A stretch of DNA of 64,000 nt from contig NC_086108.1 of assembly GCF_963921235.1 (NCBI RefSeq), positions 44,456,001 through 44,520,000 of the forward strand, read 5' to 3'. Below the pieces are notes generated by a model. That model saw only the letters and a list, made by a program, of their open reading frames with translations. It was not told the origin of the DNA and searched no databases. This DNA is from Mobula hypostoma (taxonomy: Eukaryota). Below, piece by piece: positions 3,464 to 64,000 of the stretch. Within the stretch, counting starts at the first letter, position 1; each line of letters starts with the position of its first letter. Made by a program: the position numbers and the translations under genes.

Positions 3464-5374
3464 CAGTACTGTGCAAATGTCTTGGGTGCATGTAAATAAA
3501 TGTGTGAAATGAAGATGCTTTCAAAAATAATGAAACTAAAAGTTTCTAATTATCAAAAAAAAACTATAAAGAGCAGTAAACAGTAAAATCTAAATCAAAT
3601 CCATAGTTGGTGTGATCACCCTTGCCTTTAAACTGCAGCAAATCTCTTGGGTACACTGTTGTGCAGTTTTGTAAGGAAATCAGCTGATGTGTTTTCCCCA
3701 TCATCTTGAAGTTGTGACAGTTCTTCTGCAGACTTTGGTTGTCTCACTTGCTTCTGTCTCTCCAGCAGCCTTGATGGTGTTGACATCAGGGCTCTGCAGA
3801 GGCCATTCCATTTGTTGCAGAATTGCTTGTTGTTCTCACTGAAGCTGGTTCTTTATGGCCTTGGTCATGTGTTTTGGGTCATTGTCCTACTGCAGATTGA
3901 AGTTGGGGACTGACCAGGCGCCTCCCTGGTGGTATTGTGTGATGCATAAGAACCTGCTTATACTTAGCATTGAGATTCTATTAATTCCAACCAAATCACT
4001 AACTCCATTTGCAGAAATGCAGCCCAAACCTGCCCAAACCACTATGCTTCACTGTTGGCTGCAGGCATTCATCCACCTAGAGCTCTCCAGCTCTTCAAAG
4101 GACAACTGCATCCTGTTTGAGCCAAAAATTTCAAATCAGACCATAGCACTTGCTGTCGTTGTTCAGCAACCCAGTCCTTGTGTTTTTGTGCGTAGGTGAG
4201 TCTCTTGGTTTTGTTTCCACTTTGGAGGAATGGCTTTTTGGTAGCATCTCTTCCACGAAGACCACTTCTGGCAAGACCTCTCCAGACTGTAGAGGGGTGT
4301 ACTTTGGTTCTAGTGGTTTCTGTGAGTTCAGAGCTGTTAGTACTGCTGGACTTCCGATTTAAAAGGGACATCAGTTTGTATCTTTCGTCTGCTGTACTCA
4401 GTGTCCATGGCCAAGCACTGCATTTCTGGTCCTCAGCCTTGCCTGATTCTTTGTGCTTCTTTAGAAGAGGACTTGAAACTCCTTTCCGCTGCAAAATTTC
4501 TGCTTGCGAGAGACCTTGCTAATGCAGGATAATCACCTTGTGTCTTGTTGCTATGCTCACTCTTGTCATGGTGCAAGAAATGACAACTTGAAGGTTAAAC
4601 TGTCACATCTGTCGCAACCTCACCTTTTAGTTTGATCCTTCTCGACCAGTTTCTGTTCAGTTAATCAGTTTAGTTCATTCAACTCATTATGTCATTGATC
4701 ATTAGCACCTGTTTGTTATCTTTGTTTAATCACACACTGGGCTATATTCCAACAAACTAACATTGATTTCTGGAACTTCTGATAATGGCACCCCCTCTCC
4801 TTCACCATTCCCATTTCCCCCCTCACTTTTATCTCCTTACCTATCCATCACCTCCCTCGGGTGTTCATCCCCCTTCCTTTCTTCCTTGGCCTTCTGTCCT
4901 CTCCTATCAGATTCCTCCATCTTTAGCCCTTTATCTCTTTCACCAATTGACTTCCCAGCTCGTTACCACCCCTCCCCCTCCCAGTTTCACCTATCACCTA
5001 TTACGTTGTACTACTTCCTCCCTTTCCCCCCCCCTCTTACTCTAACTTCTCATTTCTCTTTTTTGCCAGTCCCTGATAAAGGGGTTTGGCCCGAAATGTT
5101 GACTGTACTCTTTTCCATAGATGCTACCGGACCTGCTGAGTTTCTCCAGCATTTTGTGTGTGTTACCTGCAAAGTAATCAAGTTTTTATTTGAAAAGTAG
5201 TCTATTACTTAATGTTACTTTCTTTACTGAAGTTTCTGACGTTTAATTTTTTTGGGAAATGAATGTTTGGAAATCTAAAATCTCTTTTCTACAGACACTA
5301 AGGCAGAAAACAAAAAATATACATATAAAACAAAACTTCTACTGGGGAAAAAATATCTAAGGTGCACAGTAGTG
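3464..5374 (-). mobile_element. Tc1/mariner DNA transposon, decayed transposase on - strand
   Basis: TA|CAGTACTGTGCA at 3464 and TGCACAGTAGTG|TA at 5363-5374. ORF 4069-4494 has the Tc1 HTH/linker (VHPSTVWRGLARSGLRGR..KKPFL..KRLTYAQKHKDW..VLWSD). Confidence 0.9.
4760..5166 (+). mobile_element. Penelope-like element 3' fragment with mutated hammerhead (5067-5105), nested in the Tc1
   Basis: Starts with an ORF end (NIDF-NF-stop), then a C/T-rich tract, then CAGTCC-CTGATAA-AGGGGTTTGGCCC-GAAA-TGTT-GACTG and the conserved tail. Confidence 0.85.
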
Positions 5375-8763: not shown

Positions 8764-10337
8764 AGCCCTGATGACCCTGTGATCTCCATCTCAGAGGCCG
8801 ATGTTAGACTGTGTTTAAAGAGAGTGAACCCTTGCAAGGTGGCAAGTCCCGATGAAGTACCCGGTAAGGCTCTGAAAACCTGGCCAACCAACTAGTGGAA
8901 GTATTCAAGGACATTTTCAACCTCTCACTGCTACGGGCAGAAGTTCCCACTTGCTTCAAAAAGGCAACAATTATACCGGTGCCTAAGAAGAATAATGACT
9001 ATCGCCCAGTAGCACTCACGCATCGACAGTGATGAAATGCTTTGAGAGGTTGGTTATGACTAGACTGAACTCCTGCCTCAGCAGGGACCTGGACCCATTG
9101 CAATTTGCCTATCGCCACAATAGGTCAATGGCAGACACAATCTCAATGGCTCTCCACATGGCTTTAGACCACCTGGACAACACAAACACCTACGTCAAGA
9201 TGCTGTTCATCGACTATAGCTCAGCATTTAATACTATCATTCCCACAATCCTGATTGGGAAGTTGCAGAACCTGGGCCTCTGTACTTCCCTCTGCAATTG
9301 GATCCTCGACTTCCTAACCGGAAGACCACAGTCTGTGCAGATTAGTGATAACATGTCTCCTTGTTGGCGATCAACACTGGCACAGCTCGGGTGTGTGCTT
9401 AACCCACTGCTCTCTTCTGTATATACACATGACTGTGTGGCTAGGCATAGCTGAAATACCATCTATAAATTTGCTGACGATACAACCATTGTTGGTAGAA
9501 TCTCAGGTGGTGATGAGAGGGCGTACAGGACTGAGATATGCCAACTAGTGGAATGGTGCTGCAGCAACAACCTGGCACTCAACATCAGTAAGAAGAAAGA
9601 GCTGGTTGTGGACTTCAGGAAGGGTAAAATGAAGGAACACATACCAATCCTCAGAGAGGGATCAGAAGTGGAGAGTTTGAGCAGCTTCAAGTTCCTGGCT
9701 GTCAAGATCTCTGAGGATCTAACCTGGTCCCAACATATCGATGTTGTTACAAAGGCAAGGCAGTGGCTATACTTCATTAGGAGTTTGTAGAGATTTGGCA
9801 TGTCAACAAATGCACTCAAAAACTTCTATAGTTGCACTGTGGAGAGCATTCAGTCAGGCTGCATCACTGTCTGGTATGGAGGGGCTACTGCACAGGACGG
9901 AAAGAAGTTGCGGAGGGTTGTAAATCTAGTCAGCTCCATCTTGGGTACTAGCCTACAAAGTACCTGGGACATCTTTAGGGAGCGGTGTCTCAGAAAGGCA
10001 GCGTCCGTTATTAAGGACCTCCAGCAGTCAGGGCATGCCCTTATCTCACTGTCACCATCAGGTAGGAGGTACGGAAGCCTTGAAGGCACACACTCAGCGA
10101 TTCAGGAACAGCTTCTTCCCCTCGCCACCTGACTCCTAAATGGACATGGAAACTTTGGACACTACCTCACTTTTTTAATACTCAGTATTTGTTTTTGCAC
10201 GTTTTATATTCTATTCAATATACATAATTGGTTTACTTTATTAATATTACTTTTTATTTAGTTTTTTTTCTCTGCTAGATTATGTACTGCATTGAACTGC
10301 TGCTGCTAAGATAACAAATTTCACGTCACATGCTGGT
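8764..10337 (+). mobile_element. 5'-truncated Rex/Babar LINE, disrupted RT
   Basis: [37 protein letters not shown] and C-terminal CITVWYG motifs; 3' end AATAAACCTGATTCTGA; several stops and frameshifts. Confidence 0.92.
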
Positions 10338-17540: not shown

Positions 17541-18422
17541 TGAGTAATTTCACCTTCCTAAGAAGTAAATTTCATATGATGTTTTTATGTTTATCTCAAA
17601 GAAGATTAGGAATGGGAATTGTATATATAAGTTTGTCACTTACAAATCCAATAGAGAATTTTTGAGACTGTTTACCCAAAGTTGTCAAACACTACAAGCT
17701 GAGGTCACTGCACACCATCGATGTAATTTGGTGGAAGTAAGTTAAATACGCAAAGAAGCAAGGAATGAAGGGGTGTGTTGAGTGACTTATCCCAACACTT
17801 GTACTATGGGCAATGTTCTGTTTACTAAATGCAATGTCCTAGAGTCTATAGTCAGCTCATGTTTGTTACTAATCTCAAAACTAAGTCTGTTCTTGCTTAG
17901 AATCTTTGACAGTAGGAACTTAGAGTTGTAAGCCAGCCAAGTCCTCAGTGACAAGATTCTGTATGTTGCAACATAATACCGTATTGGGTGGGGGCAGATC
18001 AAGCCAATCCAGCAGACCCAGCTGGCTAAACCATGGCTCCCAAGTTTAGCTGGAGCTATGACATGGGCTTAATATGTGAATGTCTCAGCTGTTCAGAGAC
18101 ATTGGATAAATAATACTTAAAGATACTTGAATACTTTAAAATGAAAATGTTAAAGAAAATGCAGTTATAGATGCTTGCTTATTTTAATTCCTGTGGATTT
18201 CCTATTTAGTATAAGGGTATTCTCACACCCCCTGCTGTGCTTCCATACTTAACTGCACCAATCCATTTGGATTGTTTCAGGGATTCACAAATTAAAATCC
18301 TTGTGTGAACATCTTGTGTTTTCCAGAGTTACAATGGAAAACAGCATTTATGTGGTTAAGTGTTATGTACAAAACCTAGCCCTCTGTAATAGTATGTAAC
18401 ACCATAATCTATTAAGTCCAGA

Positions 18423-19851
18423 GTGTCCTGCCTCAACGACTACCGTCCCGTCACACTCCCATCCATCATCATGAAGTGTTTCGAGAGGCTCGTCATGAGG
18501 CACATCAAGACCCTGCTGCCCCCCTCACTGGACCCCCTGCAGTTCGCGTACCGCCCCAACCGTTCAACAGACGATGCCATTGCCATCACCCTCCACCTGG
18601 CCCTAACCCACCTGGACCAAAAAGACACGTACGTTCGAATGCTGTTCATAGACTTCAGTTCAGCATTCAACACAATCATTCCTCAGAGACTGATTGGAAA
18701 GCTGAGCCTATTGGGCCCGAACACCTCCCTCTGCAACTGGATCCTAGACTTCCTGACTGGGAGACCTCAGTCAGTCCGGATTGGAAGCAGCATCTCCAAC
18801 ACCATCACACTGAGCACGGGTGCCCCCCAAGTCTGTGTGCTCAGTCCACTGCTGTTCACTCTGCTGACCCACGACTGTGTTGCAACACACAGCTCGAACC
18901 ACATCATCAAGTTCGCAGATGACACGACCGTGGTGGGTCTCATCAGCAAGAACGATGAGTCAGCATACAGAGAGGAGGTGCAGCGGCTAACGGACTGGTG
19001 CAGAGCCAACAACCTGTCTCTGAATGTGAACAAAACAAAAGAGATGGTTGTTGACTTCAGGAGGACATGGAATGATCACTCTCCGCTGAACATCGACGAC
19101 TCCTCCGTAGAGATCGTTACGAGCACCAAATTTCTTGGTGTTCACCTGGCGGAGAATCTCACCTGGTTCCTCAACACCAGCTCCATAGCAAAGAAAGCCC
19201 AGCAGCGTCTCTACCTTCTGCGAAGGCAGAGAGAAGTCCATCTCCCACCCACCATCCTCACCACATTCTACAGAGGTTGTATTGAGAGCATCCTGAGCAG
19301 CTGCATCACTGCCTGGTTTGGAAATTGCACCATCTTGGACCCTGCAGCGGATAGTGAGGTCAGCTGAGAAGATCATCGAGGTCTCTCTTCCCGCTATTAC
19401 AGACATCTACACCACACGCTGCATCCGTAAAGCAAACAGCATTATGAAGGACCCCACGCACCCCTCATACAAACTCTTCTCCCTCCTGCCATCTGGCAAA
19501 AGGCACCGAAGCATTCGGGCTGTCACGACCAGACTATGTAACAGTTTCTTCCCCCAAGCCATCAGACTCCTCAATACCCAGAGCCTGGACTGACACCAAC
19601 CTACTGCCCTCTACTGTGCATATTGTCTTGTTTATTATTTATTGTTATTTATTGCAGTGCCTGCACTGTTTTGTGCACTTTATGCAGTCCTGGGTAGGTC
19701 TGTAGTCTGGTGTAGTTTTGTGTTGTTTTACGTAGTTCAGCATAGCTTTTGTATTGTTTCATGTAGCACCATGGTCCTGAAAAATGTTGTCTCATTTTTA
19801 CTGTGTACTGTACCAGCAGTTATGGTTGAAATGACAATAAAAAGTGACTTG
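18423..19851 (+). mobile_element. 5'-truncated Rex/Babar (Rex1-like) LINE with 314-aa open RT frame
   Basis: [70 protein letters not shown]; one frameshift near 19340; tail ACAATAAAAAGTGACTTG. Confidence 0.95.
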
Positions 19852-26629: not shown

Positions 26630-27200
26630 TGGATTTAAGTGCACAGGGCTTGATTGGTAATTTTGCGGGTGACAGAGAGCCAAGGAGTGGTAGATAAGTG
26701 TGAGGTGAGGCATTTTGGGAACTCAAACCAGCGTAGGACTTGTCCTGTGAATGGTAGGGCACAAGGGGGTGTAAGGTAACAGGGAACCAGGAGTATAGCT
26801 GCATAGTTCTTTGAAAGTGGCATCACAGGTAGTAATGAAAAACGAGTTGAGCCCACAGGCTTTCATCAGCCCAGGGCATTGAACATAGGAGTTGAGACTT
26901 CATGTTGCAGTTGTACAAGTTGTTGTGAAGCAGCACTTGGAGTATTGTATACAGTTTTGGTCACTTTATTATAGGAAAGACATAGTTAAACTACAAGGAG
27001 TACAGAAAAGATTTATGAAGATGTTACCAGGACCAGAGGGCCTGAATTATAGGGAGAAATTGGCCAGGCTAGGAGAGTGAGGAGTAGCCTAACGGATTTA
27101 TAAAGTCATGAGGGGCACAGGTAAGGTGGATGGTTGCAGTCATTTTCCCCAGGGTAGGGGAATCCAAAACTAGGGGGCTTAGATATAAGGTGAGAGGTTG
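26630..27200 (+). mobile_element. CR1 LINE 3' fragment
   Basis: HLEYCIQFWSLYYRKDIVKLQGVQKRFMKMLPG..LNYREKL. Confidence 0.85.
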
Positions 27201-28350
27201 GTGATGAAACACCAATTCCTGCCTGAGAAGCGACTTGGATCCACTCCAATTTGCCTACCAGAGCAACAGATCCACAGCAGATGCCATCTCATTAGCTCTT
27301 CTCTCAACCCTGGAACAGCTGGACAGCAGAGATGCATATATCATGATGTTCTTTATTGATTACAGCTCAACATTCAATACCATCATTCATTCCAGACTAA
27401 TTAGTAAGTTCCAAGACCTTGGCCTCAATACTTGTGCAATTGGATCCTGGATTTCCTCTCTTGTAGACCTCAATCAGTTTGGATTGCCAACAACATCTCC
27501 AACATTTCCTCCACAATCTCCATCAGCACAGGTGTACCACAGGCTGTGTACTTAGCCACATGCTCTACTGGTTTTACACTTAATGACTGTGTGGCTAAGC
27601 ACAGCTCCAATGCCGTATTCAAGTTTGCTGACAACACCGCTGTCGGAGGTGGAGAGGGTCAGCAACTTTAAATTCCTCAGTAAATCAATCACAAACAAGA
27701 GAATATCTGCAGATTCTGGAAATCAAGCAACACACAAAATGCTGGAGGAACTCAGCAGGCCAGGCAGCATCTATGGAAAAGAGCACAGTCAATGTTTTGG
27801 GCCGAGACCTTTCATCAGGACAGTGCCTCTACTTCCTTAGGAGTTTGTGGAGATTCAGGGACATCTAAAACTTCGGCAAACTTATATAGATGTGTAGTGG
27901 AGAGTAATATTGACCACATCACAATCTGGTATGGAAACACCAAAGCTTTTGAACAGAAATTCCTACAAATAGCAGGTACGGCCCAGTCCATCACGGGTAA
28001 AGCTCTCCCAACCATTGAGCACATCTGCTTGAAATGCTGTCACAGGAAAGAGCATCCATCGTCAGGGTCCTGAACCAAAGGGGATAACTTCACTCAACCC
28101 CATCATCGAAATGTTTCACATCCAATAGACTTGCTTTCAAGGACTCTTCATCTCATGCTCTCTATTGCTTACTTGTTTATTATTTTTTTCTTTTTGTATT
28201 TGCGCAGTTTGTTGTCTTCTGCACTGTTATTAACTGCTGAAGTTGCATGATCTTTCATTGATTAAGTTATGGTTATTCTATAGATTTAGAGTATGCCCAC
28301 AAGAAAATGAATCTCGGGGTTGTATTTGGTGATTGTATATGTACTTTGAT
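27200..28350 (+). mobile_element. Rex/Babar LINE fragment, internally deleted, interrupted by a PLE terminus
   Basis: DPLQFAYQSNRSTADAI..FIDYSSTFNTII; KFADNT; 3' end tttatctcgaacttt. Confidence 0.88.
27690..27822 (-). mobile_element. Short Penelope-like 3' terminus with hammerhead remnant
   Basis: - strand GTC-CTGATGA-AAGGTCTCGGCCC-AAAA-CATT-GACTG followed by the conserved tail. Confidence 0.88.
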
Positions 28351-30789: not shown

Positions 30790-30856
30790 TCTGGGTTTGA
30801 TGTTTTTGGTGGCAGTACGCTACTCTAACTGCTATTCAAACAAATGTTGAAATGAA

Positions 30857-31398
30857 AACAACAGGAATACTGCAGATGCTGGAAATTCGTGCAACACACA
30901 TCAAAGTTGCTGGTGAACAGAGTAGGCCAGGCAGCATCTCTAGGAAGAGGTACAGTCGACGTTTCAGGCCGAGACCCTTGTCAGGACTAACTGAAGGAAG
31001 AGTTAGTAAGAGATTTGAAAGTGGGAGGGGGAGGGGGAGATCCAAAATGATAGGAGAAGACAGGAGGGGGAGGGATGGAGCCAAGAGCTGGACAGGTGAT
31101 TGGCAAAGGGGATATGAGAGGATTATGGACAGAAGGCCCGGGGAGAAAGACAAGGGGGGGGGGAAACCCAGAGGATGGGCAAGGGGTATAGTCTGAGGGA
31201 CAGAGGGAGAAGAAGGAGAGTGAGAGAAAGAATGTGTGTATAAAAATAAATAACAGATGGGGTATGAGGGGGAGGTGGGGCATTAGTGGAAGTTAGAGAA
31301 GTCGATGTTCATGCCATCAGGTTGGAGGCTACTCAGATGGAATATAAGGTGTTGTTCCTCCAACCTGAGTGTGGCTTCATCTTTACAGTAGAGGGGGC
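30857..31398 (-). mobile_element. Penelope-like element 3' end: GIY-YIG C-terminus, pLTR and hammerhead remnant; 14-bp TSD
   Basis: - strand translates LYCKDEATLRLEEQHLIFHLSSLQPDGMNIDFSNFH*, the typical GIY-YIG end. AATGTTGAAATGAA at 30843-30856 and 31399-31412. Confidence 0.92.
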
Positions 31399-31952
31399 AA
31401 TGTTGAAATGAATACATTCGATCGGATTAAATTCAGAATATATTCAATGAGTGGAAGGAGAGATAGCAATCTGCAGAAGTACACCACAGTTTTAATGAGT
31501 CTCTCCTTGTGTTCTTGTCACATGCAGTCTGACCAGTTGAGACTTCTACCTCCAGTATCTGCTGCAATCTCTTGAAGACCAGTTAGTATTTAATGACTGA
31601 ATACTGCCTTTAATTTAGATATAAGTTGTATATGGATACATGCTTTGATATTAAATAAACCTTTGATAAGATTTCAAAGAAGACAAAAGAAAAATGATGC
31701 AGTAATTTTCTGTTTAGTTTCAATATTTTCCTAATTATAATAATTATGACTATGAGCTTGTGCAAAGGTGGGTTTGGATAGTTTGACTGCTGAAACAAGC
31801 AGCATTTCTTAGCTCTTTGTTGCCTCTAAACTGTGGAGGGCTATGTGACCCAGTCGGAGATTATTGCAGCTCTTGCAAGCCACTGGAGAGGAAGTAATGG
31901 GGGATGGGTAGCCTGGTGAAATGGAACACTCTAAAATTGCTTAGGTCTAGAG

Positions 31953-38220: not shown

Positions 38221-39230
38221 TTGTTACTCTTATATTTTGCAATTTATACCTTTTACGCCCTTGCACTGTAGTGTTGCCATGAAACACCTAATTTCATATC
38301 ATATGTCAATGATAATGATTCTGGTCATGAAACACATGATGCTACATCTCATTTTTACTTCTGTTGGAGTGTGGCAGGGAAATCCATTCAAGAATGGCAA
38401 AACTTTCTTGCTCTCTACAAACAATACACTTCTTCCCCCTCCCCTCTCCCCCCCCCCTCCAACCTTGGCCTCTGTCCTTGCCAACCCAGAAAAGAATACT
38501 GGTTTGTGTACAAGGTTGAGGGTGATGGCAAATCTCGTTTGTGCGTAAGCCATGTAATAAAGTGTTGTACAAGTTTTACACTGGTCAGATGTTCTGCTCA
38601 GAATCAGTGATTTGTTAGGGTGAATGGGGAAAAAGGAAGATGAAAAGTAATGACGTGAGCTTTTGCAAATATTTTTTTCTCATTGTGTGTACAGAACAAC
38701 GTTGACTGTTGGAGTTGCAATTGCACAAAACATTGAATCTCTGGACAGCTGTTTTAGTAGCTGTCAGGTTATGAGACTTACGATGCTGAGATGTCTCTAA
38801 GCAGCCTAATTTGACAGGAATAAATCTGTCACAGTCCAAATTTGCTGGGTATGTGGTTAAAAGCAGGACCATTAGATTTGGTTAGAATTCAAGAGGGAAG
38901 AAATTGGGAAGTGTAAGTTTCAAACGTGCCAAGGGTTTTGGGAAAAAGATCTCTCGTTTAACAGCATCTGGGTGTGTGAGGAAAGCATCCAGTTTTTTTT
39001 ATAGGTGAAAGGACTGTGACACAGTGTGCAATGGATCAGTGGATGTTGAGTTTCCAGAACAATGTGAAAAGGAACTGTGGTAATTAGGCACAGATTGCTC
39101 TTTGTAAATGAATCTCTTGCTCTGGTAGTGAGTGAACTGTTCCCACCGAGTTTAACCTTTTGCCACAAGGGGTTCAGGGAAGTATGTCATTGTGACAGAG
39201 GTTTGAATCTGAATGTTTTATTTCTTGCAG

Positions 39231-39320
39231 AGTGCGGCGGCAGCTCCAAGTCCAGTGCTTGGAAACATTCCTCCCAGTGATGGGATACCAGGAGGCCCCA
39301 TTCCTCCAGGCTTTTTTCAG
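39231..39320 (+). CDS. SSBP3: SSBP3 coding exon (90 nt, phase 0/0), [30 protein letters not shown]
   Basis: Acceptor tttatttcttgcag and donor CAG/gtaaaa. The translation matches, from memory, human SSBP3 [30 protein letters not shown] directly after the LUFS domain. Confidence 0.96.
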
Positions 39321-46068: not shown

Positions 46069-47453
46069 ATCTTCTGTAGGTAACTTCCTATATGTAACCT
46101 GTTGTTTTGCATCATTTCTTGCACGGATTAATTTGGATTTCAATTTGTAGCACATGGTGGAAAGACATCCATCTCTATGCACTCTTTATTTGCCTTGAAA
46201 CGTCAATATCTTTTCACAAGAAGGATCTCATTTAAAAACCCCGAAGAAAGCTTCCGGCTCAGGTGATATTTGAGAAGGTGTTTAACTCATTGCATAGCTT
46301 TGTGTATACACACTACAAACACACACTGAACGCTGTACACGACAGTGTCATCCTCTGACCTGAGCAACATTGATCACCAAGACTTAGAAATGAAGTCAGA
46401 ATGTAGCGCATTGACTGTGTCATTGCGATGCTTAAATGAATCAGCAGCAGAGCCAATGCAGCAAGAATAGGAGCGAGCGGCTTATGCTAAACAAGAAGTT
46501 GAGATGCAAACAGAGAAAGCTTGCGTAGATGTAGAGAGAATGAGTGTAGAGGCTATGTTAAATGTACTTGGGGAAGAAGACGAGGCTGAGGCTGCCTCAG
46601 CAGAGGCCAAGGTGTATGATGCAGCAGCTGATTTAGATAATGGTGAGTCTGCAACTAGAATCAGTAATAGTTTGCCATCACAAGAACCAATGCATCCAAA
46701 GAATATGTCCAAATGTATCTTGGCTGTGAAAAAGAAATTGGTCCAGCTGCCCACACCATACGGCCAATATGCCTTTCGCATATTCCAGGTATTGACTATC
46801 AAGGTCTACAGCAGTAAAGATCCACAAATACCCCCTTCTGCAGTTTCATCACAGCAAAAACCTCTGTCAAGAGTTGCAACTGATACCGATTTCAACTGCA
46901 CAGACATGGACAGACTGAGCTTCCATCTATCCCAGGACATACATTTGGCAAACCAGTCTCCACAATGCTTTCAATCAGGAGCCTTAGGTGCATTAAATTT
47001 CGCTTGGTATCTGTAACCTAGTCACAGCAGGACTAAAGTGTTTGGCAACTGGTCGACCCGTTATCTATCCTGGAAATCAAGCTTCTGCAATGCCATGGGG
47101 AAGAGCTAGACCTTCTCTAAGTGGCTTGATGTTACTGCAACATGCAAGAAAGGTTAGAGTGGTGCACATTAATAATCCAGCTATGGCTTTACAAATGCTG
47201 TTGGAGAGGTGGACAAATTCTGTGACTCTCTAGAGGCAATCGAAGGATATCTCTTCAGCAGACTCTTAATTTTCCAAACCTCTCACACAAAGAATAGCAG
47301 AAGCTACTGGAGTTTGCAGATATGTTGTCAGAACAAAACAAGGGTTACCTACGAGGACTGAGTTACTTGGACATGGCAAGAGGAATAAACCCTACAGTGC
47401 AGAGACTACCAAGCAAGAACAGTGGATAACTAAACAAAGCATCATGCCCACTA

Positions 47454-47583
47454 GGGTCTCGGCCTGAAACGTCAACTGCACCTCTTCCTAGAGATGCTGC
47501 CTGGCCTGCTGCGTTCACCAGCAACTTTTATGTGTGTTGCCTGAATTTCCAGCATCTGCAGAATTCCTGTTGTTTGCGTTTTT
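47454..47583 (+). mobile_element. Short Penelope-like 3' terminus with perfect 13-bp TSD, nested in BEL
   Basis: ATCATGCCCACTA at 47441-47453 and 47584-47596; starts GGGTCTCGGCCTGAAACGTCAACTG. Confidence 0.92.
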
Positions 47584-50500
47584 ATCATGCCCACTATCTG
47601 TCATTTTTCATTCTTTGTGGATTCCGTCTGCTGCCACACAGAAATGCGAAATGATCCTAGTTTTATGTTCTCAGCTTCAGGTAACACATCTTTCAAAGAG
47701 GTTTTCGGTTCGGTAAAAGCATGAGAAACGAGAACACTTACAACGGTCAACAAAACTTAAGTTGAAAACTCTGTTATGAACCTCAGTAGACAATGCCCTG
47801 ACCATCAGAAACCTACCCCCTTTAAGAAATGCAGAGAGTTCAGCAAGAAACCGCTTGCAGACTGGAGACACTTTCTGAAGGCGTACTCAATATGTTTCAA
47901 ATGTTGTGCCTCAACAGAGAACTAAGGAGTACCTGCAGCAGAGCACAGAGGGGAGCCAACTGAGCCAATGGATTTATTGTGAAGTCAATAGGAGGAGAGG
48001 TCTACTTACTCTTGCCAACCCTCATTGAGTGCGGCCATGTCCCCAACAACAGGGATGACATTCCAATTCCTGAAGCTGCACACGAGGACGTAGCTGACTA
48101 GATCCCTCACTGATTCTTCTGCTGAGGTTCTCCTGTTGCTTGGCAGAGACACCATCTGTGCACGTAAGGTACACGATCAGCGCAGTGGTCTGCTCAGCTC
48201 ACCTTATGCCCAATGACTGGACCTGGGTTGGATCACAGTGGGTGAAGTCTACCGTGATGGTGTTCATCAGCCCACTGTCAGCACATTTAAGACTAATATC
48301 CCGGAGAATGTGCACCTAAGTCATTTCAGACTCTGAGAGTAGAATCTATATGAAAGAGAAGATTGTAGGCGAGCAAACCAAGCATCCTGACATACTTCTG
48401 CTCAATCAGATTTAGGCAAGCTGGTTTTCTGTCACTCAGATGATTATAAGCTGGCATCTTCCATCGAAGATGAAGTCTTCCTTTCAACTATGAAGAGTTC
48501 AGCAAAGATGAGTCGAACAGTTGGGTATCTTCCCTTCCTTGCTGCTCTCCAAGACAACTCCTACCAGACAACAGAGAGCAGGCTCTCAGTTGACTCATGT
48601 CCCTCAGTCACATTGAGAAGGAAACCGGAAATGAAAGATCATTACGCAGAGTTCACGGAGAGACCTCAGGGACAATAATGCTGAGTAAACACCTCCGCCA
48701 GATCCCAAAAAAGAAAACTGGTATTTGCCCAACTTTCATGTTTACCACCCCCAGAAACCTGCATAAATACGAATTGTTTGATTCAAGTGCACAGTTCAAA
48801 GATGTATCACTGAGCAATGTGTTCTTGCAGGGTCCAGACCTCCATAACTGTCTGCTTGGGGTTGTCATGTGCCTCAGAGCTGAGTCTGTCCCAGTGATGG
48901 TAGACTTAGAACAAATGTTCCACTGCTTCCTCATGAGAGAGGATCATCAAGTCTACCTCAGATTCTTGTGGTTTCGGGGCCACCAACTGGACATCGAGAT
49001 TCTGGAGTACAGTAAGAAAGTTCATGTATTTGATAACTGTCCCTTCCTTGCCAGCTCTGGTAATCAGCTATCAAGGGAGAGAAGGAATTCTAGGCTGAAA
49101 CACAAAGGTATCTGAAGGCAACAGACATTGCTGGACGTAGTGAAGTTGGATTCATCCTGGGCAAGGCAAAGTGTGGCCCAATTGTCATTCTGAGTAAGCA
49201 CCATGTCTAATGTCTGCTCATTAGACATTGCCACCATGAACAACATTTTCCAAGTGAGAACGGTTCAAGACTGTTTTCAAGGCTAGTTTCTGAGACTATC
49301 CTTCTGTTACCAAAGACTTAATGAGTCGACATTTGTCTTTTAGTTTCAGTAATTAATTTGACATCCTATGGATGCCGGGGGAAGTGTTCTGGACTTTAGA
49401 GGCGCAGTTCGTTTCCTATGCAGTTTGTTTTGCATGAACATCACTTCCTGCATGTGAGCATTTTTTTTATATCATTTCCTGCACGGGTTAATTTAGATTT
49501 CAGCTTGAAGCACACGGTGGAAAGACATCCATCTTCATGCACTCTTTATGTACCTTTGAAACAGCAATATCCTTTCACGAGTAAGAAAGGTCCCATTAAA
49601 AACCCTAAAGAAAGCTTCTGGCTCAGGTGATTTTTGACTCACTGCATAGCTTTGTATACACTTAATGCACTGCAAGGGCAGTAGAAGGGGCATTGCAGGC
49701 AATTTAGTTCACCACTAATATGTTTGCCATATAGGTACAAACACGTTCCAACAGTTCAGCTCTGTGTTTTAGTGATCAGAACCGAAAATCCAAACTGACT
49801 TCCTCCTTCCCTGAACTCTGCACTCTCCAACCCTATACCATTCAGGCAAAGTAAACATTAATTCCAGATAAGTTTTCGCTTTCTCTATTTCAAATGATCT
49901 TGCTCCTTGTTTTTATTTTACAAACTTGAAAGGTAGGTGCAATTTTTCTCACTTCTTCTCTGACAGATGGTTCTTTATGAATTAACGAATGGCCTAATGT
50001 TCAAGGTATAGTTTTTCCAGTAATTCATGGCTGATCTGTTTGTGTTCTACCTTAAATTGGAAACTTTTAGGCTACGACCATCAGGTTTTCTTTTCTACAG
50101 AAACTAGCCATGTAGAGTTTGAACCACCACTGTTGAAATGGAAAGTTGCTCATAAATCAATGTCCACTGCTGTGTTTGCTACGCATCAGCAGTTAGCCTG
50201 CAGCGTGAGGAATAACAAAGCAGCCCGTCTTGTGTGCCACCACTGCCCCCTAATGTTTTGTGATATTGTACAGAAGTGAACAACTTTGTACTGGATTTTG
50301 CACCAACATGAGTTCAGGTGGAAATTTTGAACAACTTTTGCAGGAAATGTTGGATAGACAGTTGTATACACGTCACATTGAAGAAATAGTCAGTACAGCT
50401 AACTTGACTGTTTGGTTATCAACTTCAAAAGATTTACTATTCCACTGCCCCGCACACACTTGCAATTTCTACTAATTGTGTAAGTGTGTGTTTGTATGTA

Positions 50501-53523: not shown

Positions 53524-56046
53524 GTAATGAGCTGATGCAGTTGCTTGGGTTCTTCACTTCAAAGGGAGCAAGAATTTCTACATTTGACTAATGATTTGCC
53601 TTTGCTTGCTGTTCTTTTATGTACAAAATTCCTGATCGGGTTGTCCCCAGAAGTGAAGCTTCCGTTTAGGGCTCTTCTAAATTTGTTCAATTTGGTTCAG
53701 GCTTCTGCTGGCCCACAGTACACAAATGCATATTGAAATCATTTTTTTGTTCCCTTCTCTTCATGCCCTTCAGGCCTCTCCCCAAATTAGATCGTGGTAT
53801 GCCTACCCTTGAGGGATGTGGCCAGACTTCAGAGGTGACCCTTGTCAATGAATGCAAGGTGACTCTTTGCACTCGGAGGCCATCACAGCCCAGTCCTGTC
53901 CTGCCATCCACACAGACACGTGCACATTTTCCCCACAAGAATCAGTGGATAATGAATGGAAGTAGGAACTCTGGTTGGTTATAGTTTTCTTGCCCCATTT
54001 CTTTAGATCACCCACCTGTCCTAAACTACCATCTGTCCCTCGGCATTCACCTTTTGGGTCCAGAGGCATGAGGTTAATAGCGTATTGAGCTTTGCCAAAT
54101 TTTCTCAAATCAGGGCATCGAACTGGAGCTGAACCTTGGTCTCCTTTGTTCACCTGGTTCGATTCCAACCCGTATAGTGCATGTATCAGGTGGGGTGAGA
54201 CCCTCGTCTTAAACTTCATGTCTTAAATTCATTTGGCATACTGGCATTTTTGAAACGTGTGCAATTTCAGATGGCAGGACTAATTAGTTTTTTATTTGGA
54301 AACTTTGTAGGGTGGTGCGGTGGCTTGATTTTCAAAAGTATATACATGATCCTTTGGGATTAAGAAGGTTCACTCATGGGATAACCAGATTAGCTATTAC
54401 ATATTTCCTTCCATGATTGTAAATACTTCTAAATGTACTTGGCTATGTGTGCAGTTCACTGCCCTGATACTGGGTCTGTGAGCATTTTCATTTCTTTGAG
54501 TCCATGGTTTAAAACTGAATGTGTTGATGTTTATTGATGAGTTATGTTACTGGTGATTTTTTTGTATTTACATGTCCGTGTGTCTCTGTATTAAATGTGC
54601 AGTATTTTGTTGCATGATTGTTTACCATGTTATCTGCGGCGTTGAGGAATCCCCTCAAGATGTTGCTGAGTCACTGATTCCTTGGCTATCGTGAGCTCAC
54701 CGTCTACAAATGTGTTCATTTTACTGTGTTTAGACACAAGGCAGTTGAGAAAACATTTCCAAACAAATGATACTCCCGGCAACTTTTTATTGTACATTAC
54801 TCCACAGTTTGTTTAATTAAGGCTCCTATTTAATGTCTTATATTGAAAATCTAAAATAACTTGGCTTTATATATTAATTCACTCCCCCCTCCAGCTGAAT
54901 ATCCGTTGCATTCCTCTCTCAATCCACATTTTATTTGGCTGGTGCTGCTCCACAAAAACCGTATAATGATACCCAGGCAGAAGGATTTTCTTTAGATTCT
55001 TCTTCCCTTCCAGTACAATGGTGTTTTTTAAAAAGAATAGCAAATACTCCTGTAAATCTTAGTCTTGCAGAAGTTTTACCTGTTATGTGGATGCCTCAAA
55101 TGTTTCAGTGGGAGCTTGGAATTTTCTGTAATTATTTTCAAAAACTTCCAAATTTCCAGCATCCAGTTTTTGCATAAATTTGCCATGGCTTTGTTTGTTG
55201 GGAGGAAATAGTTTTGCTTATGTAAAGTGTAAGACTGCTTATGTCCATTTCAGTTTGTTCACAAAGTGAAACAAATTCTTTGTAACTGAATAAAAATTGA
55301 GTTGCATTTGATCTGTTTTTCTTTGCAATCGTTAGAGTCTGTTATCCTTTAAAGTTTAGCTGTAAAAGAGCAGCACCACTGTGAGGAGAAACATTGGCTG
55401 TGAACATATTCCTTAGCACCGAATCAGTGCACGACCCTATAATATTTCACACTCCACGGTAAAGTGGAATATATTGCTTAATTATTCCAGACAGATTGTT
55501 ATGTTGTGAAGGAAATTGATACAGCTTTAAAGCTATAAAGGTTCTTCTCTGAAGGGTCAGAGAAGTTGAGTTGTAATATGCAGTATTCAGTTTCTATTAA
55601 ACTTTCTTTTGTGTAGTGTTGTTCATTGGAATATTTGGAAAAAAATTGTTTTTAAAAGCATAGTATGATGTTTGAAAAGTGAATTACAATTTCCTTTGTC
55701 ACCTCCGAGTCCTCATTTTTATCCAGATGCAGTAATCAAGAAATGGCTATGACAAGTGATTTATTGCCACAAGTGAAATCACTCAGAAACCACTGTTTTC
55801 AATTCCACCTGAACCTTGCATGGATTGTAAATTGTACTGAGCTCACTGAGAGTGCAGGAATTCATAGGGTTGGTTAATTTACTGTTTCACACGTCACCAA
55901 ATCACTTGCTTTGGCTATGGTAACTTTTCAAATTGTTGCATGAATCTGCAGTTTTTTTTCCACTTGTATAAAAATGTTTTAATTGAGTGAGATTAAGACT
56001 GTTATTTTAGCAGATTGTAGACTTAACCAATTCTATGTGATTGCAG

Positions 56047-56106
56047 CCTTTTATGTCACCGCGATACGCAGGAGGTCCAAGGCCCCCCATCAGAATGGGA
56101 AGCCAG
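56047..56106 (+). CDS. SSBP3: SSBP3 coding exon (60 nt, phase 0/0), PFMSPRYAGGPRPPIRMGSQ
   Basis: Acceptor ttgcag and donor CAG/gtactg. Matches SSBP3 PFMSPRYAGGPRPPIRMGNQ. Confidence 0.95.
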
Positions 56107-61931: not shown

Positions 61932-62271
61932 GTAAGTCTCTTGCATACAGATAAATCTATATGCTACTAAAACTCTCATGCTCTGTCTGTCTGTTTGTGA
62001 CCTCGAGTCAGCGCAAACGCTGTATTACAGCAGCACTTTTTTTTGGCTACATTGAATTCAAGTGCGCTAACTTACAGAATGCAGGCAAAGTTCAGGGTTA
62101 TATATTCATATAAAATTGCTCATTTGCCAAAAATCAACAGGTTGGCTTTCACCCGAGACCCGACCGGCCATCATGGAAGTCGGGACACGACAGCCCAACG
62201 CATGCGCACGGCCAGCCCCAGCAACGACACCTACCGGAGCAAAAGGGCAGGGCAGCTCTATTTCGAGGGCA

Positions 62272-62650
62272 CAAAATAATCTGCAGATGCTGGGGTCAAA
62301 GCAACACGCACAACACGCTGGAGGATCTCAGCAGGTCGGGCAGCACCTGTGGAAACGAACAGTCGACGTTTCAGGCCGGAACCCTTCATCAGGACTGAAG
62401 AAGGAGGGGGCAGAGGCCCTATAAAGGAGGTGGGGGGAGGGTGGGAAGGAGAAGGCTAGAAATGTTCCAGGTGAAAAACCAGTAAGGGGAAAGATAAAGG
62501 GGTGGGGGGAGAGGATAGGCAGGAAAGGTGAAGAAGGAATAGGGGAAAGCATAATGGGTAGTAGAAAGAGGCAGAACCATGAGGGAGGTGATAGGCAGCT
62601 GGAGGAGGGGGCAGAGTGAAACTGGAATGGGGAAGGGAGGGAGAGGGATT
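62272..62650 (-). mobile_element. Penelope-like pLTR fragment with intact hammerhead core
   Basis: Same terminal consensus as the other copies, with CpGs retained. Confidence 0.9.
62360..62397 (-). ncRNA. Minimal type I hammerhead ribozyme motif
   Basis: - strand CAGUC-CUGAUGA-AGGGUUCCGGCCU-GAAA-CG-UC-GACUG: stem I CAGUC/GACUG, complete core, short stem II, palindromic ACGU in place of stem III, GUC cleavage triplet. Confidence 0.85.
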
Positions 62651-63315
62651 TTGAGGGGTCACATTCTGCTAATCACCATCAGCATGTGCAGGATTGGGAC
62701 AGATCTAACTGCCACCCATCAATAAGAGATAATTAAATCTTACTGTAATGACGTACTTCGAGACACCCATAAAACCCTTTGCTGCAGTCAAAGGACAGCG
62801 GTGACTATATCACGTCCATTTAGGAGAACACCAACCACAACATCTAGAATAATCAGCATCCTTTGGTGTTAGTGCTTCATATCTTCTATCCAGCATTAGG
62901 GTAAAAAAAAATGGTCAGCCTAATTATGCTGCATGGAAAGGGAAGGGGGTCATCATGGTCAAGAGCTGACACCAAACATGGTCGGGAAGCGGCAAGGAGA
63001 GGGAGAGAACAAGAATCAGATGAAGCCAGGGCCGCACGGCTCCAGGATCAAAGAGTCAGGACAAAAAAGATGAGAGAAGAGGAGACAGAGGAGGAGAGGC
63101 ATGCACGTCTCCAGGATCAGAGACAAACAACAAACAGCAGAAGAGCTGAAGAGATGAGCGATGAAAGGGCTGCACGTCTCCAGAATGACAACGAGAGGCA
63201 CAAGGATGGCTGATAAACCAGAAATGATGCCATCAAAAGTGTCCTTCGTTAAAAGAGGAGCAGCTATATTTGCTTTGTGATGTGTCATTCTTCTTTAATA
63301 AACTGAGATTTTCTA

Positions 63316-64000
63316 CAGAAAAGACTGGTAAAGACAAATGTAGGTCCCCTACAGACAGAGACAGGTGAATTGATTATGGGGAGCAAGGACATGGCAGACC
63401 AATTGAATAATTACTTTGGTTCTGTCTTCACTAAGGAGGACATAAATAATCTTCCAGAAATAGTAGGGGACAGAGGGTCCAGTGAGATGGAGGAACTGAG
63501 CAAAATACTTGTTAGTAGGGAAGTGGTGTTAGGTAAATTGAAGGGATTGAAGGCAGATAAATCCCCAGGGCCAGATGGTCTGCATCCTAGAGTGCTTAAG
63601 GAAGTAGCCCAAGAAATAGTGGATGCATTAGTGATAATTTTTCAAAACTCGTTAGATTCTGGACTAGGTCCTGAGGATTGGAGGGTGGCTAATGTAACCC
63701 CACTTTTTAAAAAAGGAGGGAGAGAGAAACCGGGGAATTATAGACCGGTTAGCTTAACGTCGGTGGTGGGGAAACTGCTGGAGTCAGTTATCAAGGATGT
63801 GATAACAGCACATTTGGAAAGCGGTGAAATCATCGGACAAAGTCAGCATGGATTTGTGAAAGGAAAATTATGTCTGATGAATCTCATAGAATTTTTTGAG
63901 GATGTAACTAGTAGAGTGGATAGGGGAGAACCAGTGGATGTGGTATATTTGGATTTTCAAAAGGCTTTTGACAAGGTCCCACACAGGAGATTAGTGTGCA
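63316..64000 (+). mobile_element. Young 5'-truncated CR1 LINE ORF2, open to the window end
   Basis: My translation is uninterrupted: KRLVKTNVGPL..LNNYFGSVFTKED..KSPGPDGLHPRVLKE..PGNYRPVSLTSVVGKLLES..SQHGFVKGK..DVVYLDFQKAFDKVPHRRL. Confidence 0.95.

Follow-up and report, generated by a model that had tools for sequence, protein, structure and literature searches.

A minimal hammerhead motif in a Penelope-like element end, most likely carried by a Helitron into an intron of an SSDP-family gene

The present analysis concerns a window of 64,000 nucleotides from Mobula hypostoma (the window being the whole stretch of DNA that was analysed) and, within it, a hammerhead motif that lies in the end of a Penelope-like element (PLE), itself inside a Helitron. 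The features at the locus are as follows.

39228-39320 (exon 39231..39320), + strand: SSDP-family exon, from a PF04503 match
56032-56106, + strand: last SSDP match upstream of the motif, from a PF04503 match
61956..63316, + strand: non-autonomous Helitron carrying the PLE end, with its 5′ TC after a host A, from junction and end comparison
62260..62269, − strand: downstream 10-bp target-site duplication of the PLE insertion, from junction comparison
62270..62647, − strand: 378-bp 3′ end (part of the pseudo-LTR) of a Neptune-type PLE, from relatives including full-length ones
62360..62397, − strand: minimal type I hammerhead motif, from sequence reading, a strict descriptor and stem analysis
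62648..62657, − strand: upstream 10-bp target-site duplication of the PLE insertion, with one CpG-type change and single at empty sites
62911..63210, + strand: short frame inside the Helitron that weakly matches the STPR repeat (PF21107, E 0.034, below cut-off)
63317..64000, + strand: start of a ~1.8-kb 5′-truncated CR1-type LINE with an RT frame (RVT_1), inserted into the Helitron

SSDP-family matches occur on the + strand on both sides of the motif, the next one lying about 15 kb past the window end, and the motif is therefore intronic and antisense. The original prediction had placed it antisense to SSBP3; the antisense position stands with respect to an SSDP-family gene, defined by PF04503 exons on the + strand, while the paralogue name is tentative, SSBP3 being what we take the gene to be from its exon peptides. 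Searches of the PDB and the Atlas with the 30-aa exon peptide gave no match. The LINE at 63317..64000 is assigned by us to CR1 on its sequence features, and the frame at 62911..63210 is presumably a remnant of the N-terminus of a Helitron protein. Elsewhere in the window are fragments of another non-LTR family (18408-19367, 8999-9454 and 27191-27632), whose 319-aa frame matches RVT_1 and ALKBH8_N, and two frames that we assume to be remnants of a Tc1-type transposase (4069-4518) and an LTR retrotransposon (48594-49115).

Read on the − strand from 62397 to 62360, the motif agrees letter for letter with its earlier description: stem I has five Watson-Crick pairs, the conserved core (CUGAUGA ... 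GAAA) is complete and the GUC triplet present, helix III is a loopless ACGU palindrome, and the predicted scissile bond falls between 62365 and 62364. Stem II, previously described only as short, is present and can be refined to an unpaired A followed by four pairs (G10.1-U11.1, G-C, G-C and U-G). In type I order, core positions C3-A9, G12-A14, A15.1-U16.1 and H17 are all found, as are two features given for this class in PMC4209133, an unpaired base between 9 and 10.1 and a loopless palindromic 15.2-16.2. A descriptor search and the Rfam hammerhead model had both been proposed as checks. The strict descriptor used here (stem I of at least 4 pairs, core, stem II of at least 3 pairs, palindromic helix III, UH) gave one match over both strands of the window, at 62360..62397, and no other on either strand of the window plus the next 39 kb; there was no match in any of 100 Markov shuffles of the window or in any of five shuffles of an 800-kb sample. 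The bare core pattern matched 10 times in the window against 7.4 expected, i.e. not above chance, and the 38-mer folded no better than its shuffles (z −1.1). With the Rfam model the motif went undetected at E≤5, so that RF00163 is unusable as a check for the PLE motif here. Judged from its sequence, the window motif is a minimal type I hammerhead with predicted self-cleavage. It is of a known kind, the minimal hammerheads of PLE ends, and is itself ordinary, because exact 34-letter intact-core matches in the genome number 1,778 for the window subfamily and 45,139 for a commoner loop variant (0 for the control), a total of at least 46,917 that counts exact patterns only.

The window copy differs from its subfamily at two CpG sites. 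Positions 7 and 11.1 are both U, where C is found in 22 and 23, respectively, of 28 subfamily copies picked by their RT region; these two CpG-type changes leave the core unbroken. The second concerns the 10.1-11.1 pair, which is G-C in 22 of the same 28 copies and G-U in the window copy, G-U also occurring in 41 of 76 sampled copies, mostly of a younger subfamily. In the subfamily that is both largest and least diverged (mean 4.6% vs 7.2%), most copies have G-U at 10.1-11.1 and, at the outer pair of stem I, U-G (L154:6951-7087 with a further 43 sampled matches, and 30859-30994 and 47453-47572 in the window), indicating that a weakened stem II has spread widely.

Covariation in stems I and II, a further check that the original prediction had named, did not materialise within the PLE family. 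Two-sided changes were absent from the 28 RT-anchored copies and numbered 0-4 per pair in the 76 sampled copies, far below broken pairs; the outer stem I pair was broken in 13 of the 28, and one-sided C-G/U-G and G-C/G-U shifts separate subfamilies in the stem pairs. Power was low because the copies are close kin in neutral decay. With covariation almost nil, what speaks for a ribozyme is that the core is complete and that the motif agrees with a class already described. A sign of selection was also sought in CpG strand asymmetry in the same 28 copies; the TpG:CpA counts, 26:14 over four core sites and 11:7 over three control sites, gave no signal of selection on single copies.

Nearest-neighbour energies, which leave out the tertiary contacts of the hammerhead core, favour other structures. 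The monomer folds best as a hairpin in which core and cleavage site are paired (−10.8 kcal/mol, or −14.5 for the CpG-intact form). The double hammerhead reaches −14.7 kcal/mol, compared with −21.6 for two hairpin monomers and −26.7 for the most stable dimer; folded within 251 nt of sequence, stems I and II show a pair probability of 0.0. For L017 and the window motif (62360-62397), a C at position 7 lets the letters of the core form an unbroken pairing with helix III and the cleavage triplet; in these folding models the stable inactive hairpin formed with C7 could be an off state for monomers. Since helix III has no loop, the active fold is out of reach for the monomer. Two copies joined as a double hammerhead would have their ACGU palindromes pair with each other, and each 5′ arm with the 3′ arm of the other copy (PMC4209133; PMC6765202). 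By analogy, the parent element would cut at GUC only as such a double hammerhead, with helix III built from two ACGU palindromes, and probably only with help of the element's protein. The modelled energies, which disfavour the active fold, fit the low activity of minimal hammerheads described in PMC4209133 and the protein dependence described for Anolis in PMC11167929.

The earlier placement of the motif in a Penelope-like terminus is supported by relatives that run upstream into an RT/GIY-YIG ORF, and fits the class described in PMC4209133. The piece at 62270..62647 begins just past the ORF stop codon and contains a pyrimidine-rich 3′ UTR, the hammerhead and a terminal tail, without coding sequence; the RT and GIY-YIG ORF is present in the parent family and absent from the window copy. 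In the relatives this ORF has a DKG motif, RT, a CX3CxxC linker (seen in L187, L189 and L004; the Neptune criterion is CX2-5CxxC between RT and EN) and GIY-YIG, the 669-aa frame of L187 matching RVT_1 at E 7.9e-6 and GIY-YIG at E 0.0038, both below the Pfam cut-off. The parent family thus appears to be an EN+ PLE, of Neptune type by its Cys linker, a feature that Neptune shares with Nematis (PMC8557442). The ORF probably starts some 170 nt downstream of the hammerhead, and its best named protein matches are from rays and sharks. Two ray gene models (P0001 and P0033), named as kinase-domain and chitinase-domain host proteins, align with more than half of the PLE ORF at 76-83% identity and are likely mis-annotations or exonised element sequence. 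Among six long loci examined, a hammerhead in each of the two end repeats was seen only in L196, in the order inverted truncated copy, end repeat, ORF, end repeat; L194 is a partial tandem in which the upstream repeat ends before the hammerhead. The family of PLE ends has 14 copies in the window and 152 matches in 80 evenly spaced 10-kb stretches, or about 190 per Mb, and 17 motifs in those stretches pass the strict descriptor. Many intact motifs form close opposite-strand pairs (e.g. G000:C1:109233-109337 and C1:2546805-2546874), the inverted structure typical of PLE insertions. A tandem array at L195:3269-4026, of 13.5 units of 56 bp with 86% matches, has in each unit a decayed hammerhead copy and a short spacer, and is retrozyme-like and derived from the PLE end.

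L013, one of the 29 closest PLE relatives, matches the window copy far beyond the PLE end, in a flanking repeat of about 1.1 kb for which a first look gave 1,647 candidates. Helitrons have a 5′ TC and a 3′ hairpin followed by CTRR, and insert between A and T with no target duplication. The carrier conforms, with A before TC at its 5′ end and a hairpin, CTAG and T at its 3′ end. The last ~120 bp of the window Helitron (hairpin, CTAG, host T) lie past the window, the 3′ end falling 1.3 kb beyond it, behind the CR1-type insertion (L080:2269, window-equivalent 65269). A solo LTR was considered for the carrier and ruled out, as the ends of 30 loci are TC and hairpin-CTAG. The exact right junction between PLE and Helitron occurs at 19 loci on 13 contigs, all 19 with the same left junction and Helitron 5′ end (type A). 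At these loci A precedes TC in 17 of 19, and where the 3′ end lies in the fetched DNA (13 of 19) CTAG is found in 11 of 13 and T next in all 13; the flanks of the 19 differ, and absence of a Helitron target duplication was judged from them by eye. The left junction pattern gave 26 loci, 13 coinciding with the 19 by coordinates, for a total of 32 type A junction loci (about 38 by capture-recapture), of which the 13 left-only loci are pattern matches alone. The same junction at 19 loci with differing flanks leads to the conclusion that the ribozyme most likely reached this site by being copied along with the Helitron. One longer Helitron copy (L060) runs into more STPR-like coding sequence in place of the usual 3′ end and is a possible lead to an autonomous partner.

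An alternative explanation could be that a young PLE copy, perhaps still active, retrotransposed here by itself. This would be consistent with a clear 10-bp duplication and with a copy that is among the three least diverged of its family in the window and, as originally stated, intact, its motif being the only complete one of the 14. It would not account for 19 loci that share one duplication, one 5′ truncation and one 3′ end in the same Helitron site, nor for a piece with no ORF that is 5.5% diverged and older than the CR1 nested in its carrier, and the nearest genomic relative is only 95% identical, over 151 bp. Self-insertion is thus largely refuted.

The PLE endonuclease could instead target the Helitron site, the composite loci then being independent insertions into a hot spot. 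The same Helitron family has captured a PLE piece a second time (type B: L032, L040, L044 and L049), independently of the first. This piece, of about 1.1 kb and with a 10-bp duplication, includes the GIY-YIG region, 3′ UTR and hammerhead and has its 3′ end ~30 nt earlier; it has 44 exact junction matches, four of them inspected, and both cargos are antisense to the Helitron. Two separate insertions into one small family would suit a hot spot, as would the Helitron-only tree (42 rows, leaving out 4 of the 19 type A loci and 2 duplicates), where carriers do not form one clade and at least two of six changes are forced by well-supported branches, and the polymorphisms that some cargo and free copies have in common, which require gene conversion or recurrent change. 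On the other hand, the 5′ truncation point and duplication are identical in 19 of 19, and all 19 cargo pieces share a haplotype of alleles rare in the 28 free copies (5/28, 2/28 and 4/28), whereas among free copies flanks are unrelated and 5′ ends scattered. Carriers also cluster in the tree (6 changes against a shuffled mean of 12.5; 0 of 500 shuffles), and derived Helitron alleles are found in 10 of 15 carriers and 0 of 27 others. Repeated targeting of the site is accordingly very improbable. Of 29 Helitrons compared, one has a PLE end at the window site and four a longer piece elsewhere, the rest being empty at both. The empty-site sequence, in which the 10 bp occur once, matched exactly 379 times, compared with 26 left junctions that are filled.

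With respect to age, the claim that this is the youngest copy in the window was not upheld. The composite is 5.5% from its own consensus (68 of 1245 sites), and an equal divergence was measured for the copy at 30850-31400 (28 of 507, 5.5%; Fisher p=1.0), while a truncated copy at 47453 differs at 4 of 119; the copy studied here is among the three youngest in the window but is not recent. The CR1-type LINE, nested inside the Helitron with a 7-bp duplication and therefore a later insertion, differs from the majority of six sampled relatives at 36 of 1829 sites (2.0%), significantly less than the composite (p=2e-7). Potential activity, also proposed originally, finds no support, there being no ORF, an antisense position, and no intact partner on the same strand in 103 kb. 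The ribozyme strand at this locus is absent from the pre-mRNA and no element protein is encoded; four contig sets of presumed RNA origin held repeat-derived pieces only, with strand and ends unreadable. The window copy is probably silent.

It could be argued that the copy has been kept as a ribozyme, either cutting an antisense transcript or pairing in trans with PLE RNAs through ACGU. The core bases and GUC are all intact after 5.5% divergence, the genome holds tens of thousands of potential partners, and conserved intronic hammerheads are known in amniotes (PMC6155905). However, of the 19 cargo copies 8 continue to satisfy the descriptor and 11 no longer do, which makes intactness at this age unremarkable; G10.1-C11.1 is now G-U, the context fold buries the motif, and PLE hammerheads have been reported to lack activity as monomers with low activity as dimers (PMC4209133) and to need the element's protein (PMC11167929). 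Retention for function is consequently hard to credit. Hardly more probable is a broader proposal, that the Helitron twice took up a ribozyme-bearing PLE end as useful cargo and that lone copies cutting in trans via ACGU seeded intronic hammerheads that were later domesticated.

Patterns detected are best explained by a minimal hammerhead of a Neptune-type PLE end repeat, the window copy being most likely an inert passenger carried into the intron by a non-autonomous Helitron, to which we give a probability of roughly 0.85. A 5′-truncated PLE end would have retrotransposed once into one Helitron copy, creating the 10-bp duplication; rolling-circle transposition would then have copied that Helitron to some 30-40 sites, including the SSDP intron, leaving the ribozyme facing away from the host gene; and CR1 would later have entered the window Helitron while CpG decay altered two motif bases and kept the core. 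The order of these events follows from nesting. Some observations fit less easily with passive carriage: carriers are not one clade, the window copy is without two alleles common to 10/15 and 12/15 carriers and ends its triplet in C (GUC), GUU being the form of 14 of 19 cargo copies, and no orthologous empty site was seen for the window locus. Contigs of runs X1 and X5 extend from the unique flank 28 letters into the Helitron, short of the 31-letter threshold, and the X9 contig ends at the junction, so that none of these was counted as an orthologue. The GUC could reflect the ancestral state, conversion or selection.

The findings have two implications, both modest in value. First is that at least 46,917 intact cores and about 190 PLE ends per Mb provide a strong test bed for these ribozymes, on which cutting in cells and depletion of intact copies on the sense strand of introns could be addressed. 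Secondly, Helitron-borne copies offer a natural control, as ribozymes copied as DNA and free of selection on RNA.

Descriptions of minimal hammerheads in metazoan PLEs go back to 2014 (Cervera and de la Pena, PMC4209133), with reports from Xena, Poseidon and Neptune elements of fishes. The present motif resembles these in its type I core, a helix I of 4-5 bp, the unpaired base between 9 and 10.1, the G10.1-C11.1 pair (in its subfamily), the loopless palindromic 15.2-16.2 and its place in an end repeat, most copies being solitary and truncated. It differs in a helix II of 4 bp, compared with 7-8 bp in schistosome families, and in the G-U of the window copy and largest subfamily at 10.1-11.1, for which G-C was described. 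Intact cores number at least 46,917 here, against ~4,000 in coelacanth and ~9,000 in Xenopus, although search methods differ. Cartilaginous fish are unnamed in the introduction, results and discussion of that paper, whose supplements may list shark or ray motifs, and our literature search for PLE minimal hammerheads in cartilaginous fish yielded nothing relevant among the papers listed. The Anolis Poseidon element PAc (Frangieh et al. 2024, PMC11167929) is likewise a vertebrate PLE with an end-repeat hammerhead and two alternative 3′ ends ~30 nt apart, seen here among cargo A, cargo B and free copies. The PAc ORF begins within stem II, as opposed to a likely start codon about 170 nt past the motif in the present family, which is also set apart by the Neptune/Nematis Cys linker, and PAc cleavage has been measured and is protein-dependent whereas that of the hammerhead here is predicted from sequence. 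Non-LTR retrozymes (bioRxiv 10.64898/2026.07.22.740005), for which one chondrichthyan genome was sampled, are also non-coding hammerhead-bearing derivatives of PLE ends; they form tandem arrays, and the window copy, which shows no tandem series of hammerhead units, stands alone and was moved as cargo in DNA form. We found no report of Helitron-carried PLE hammerheads in the literature, judged mainly by title and abstract. A parallel is known from bat Helitrons (Thomas et al. 2014, PMC4224331), where a retroposed piece with its own target duplication also lies inside a Helitron, with empty exemplars and tens of further copies; the bat cargo is an L1-made retrogene, while here it is a PLE end bearing a ribozyme, and one Helitron family took up such an end twice.
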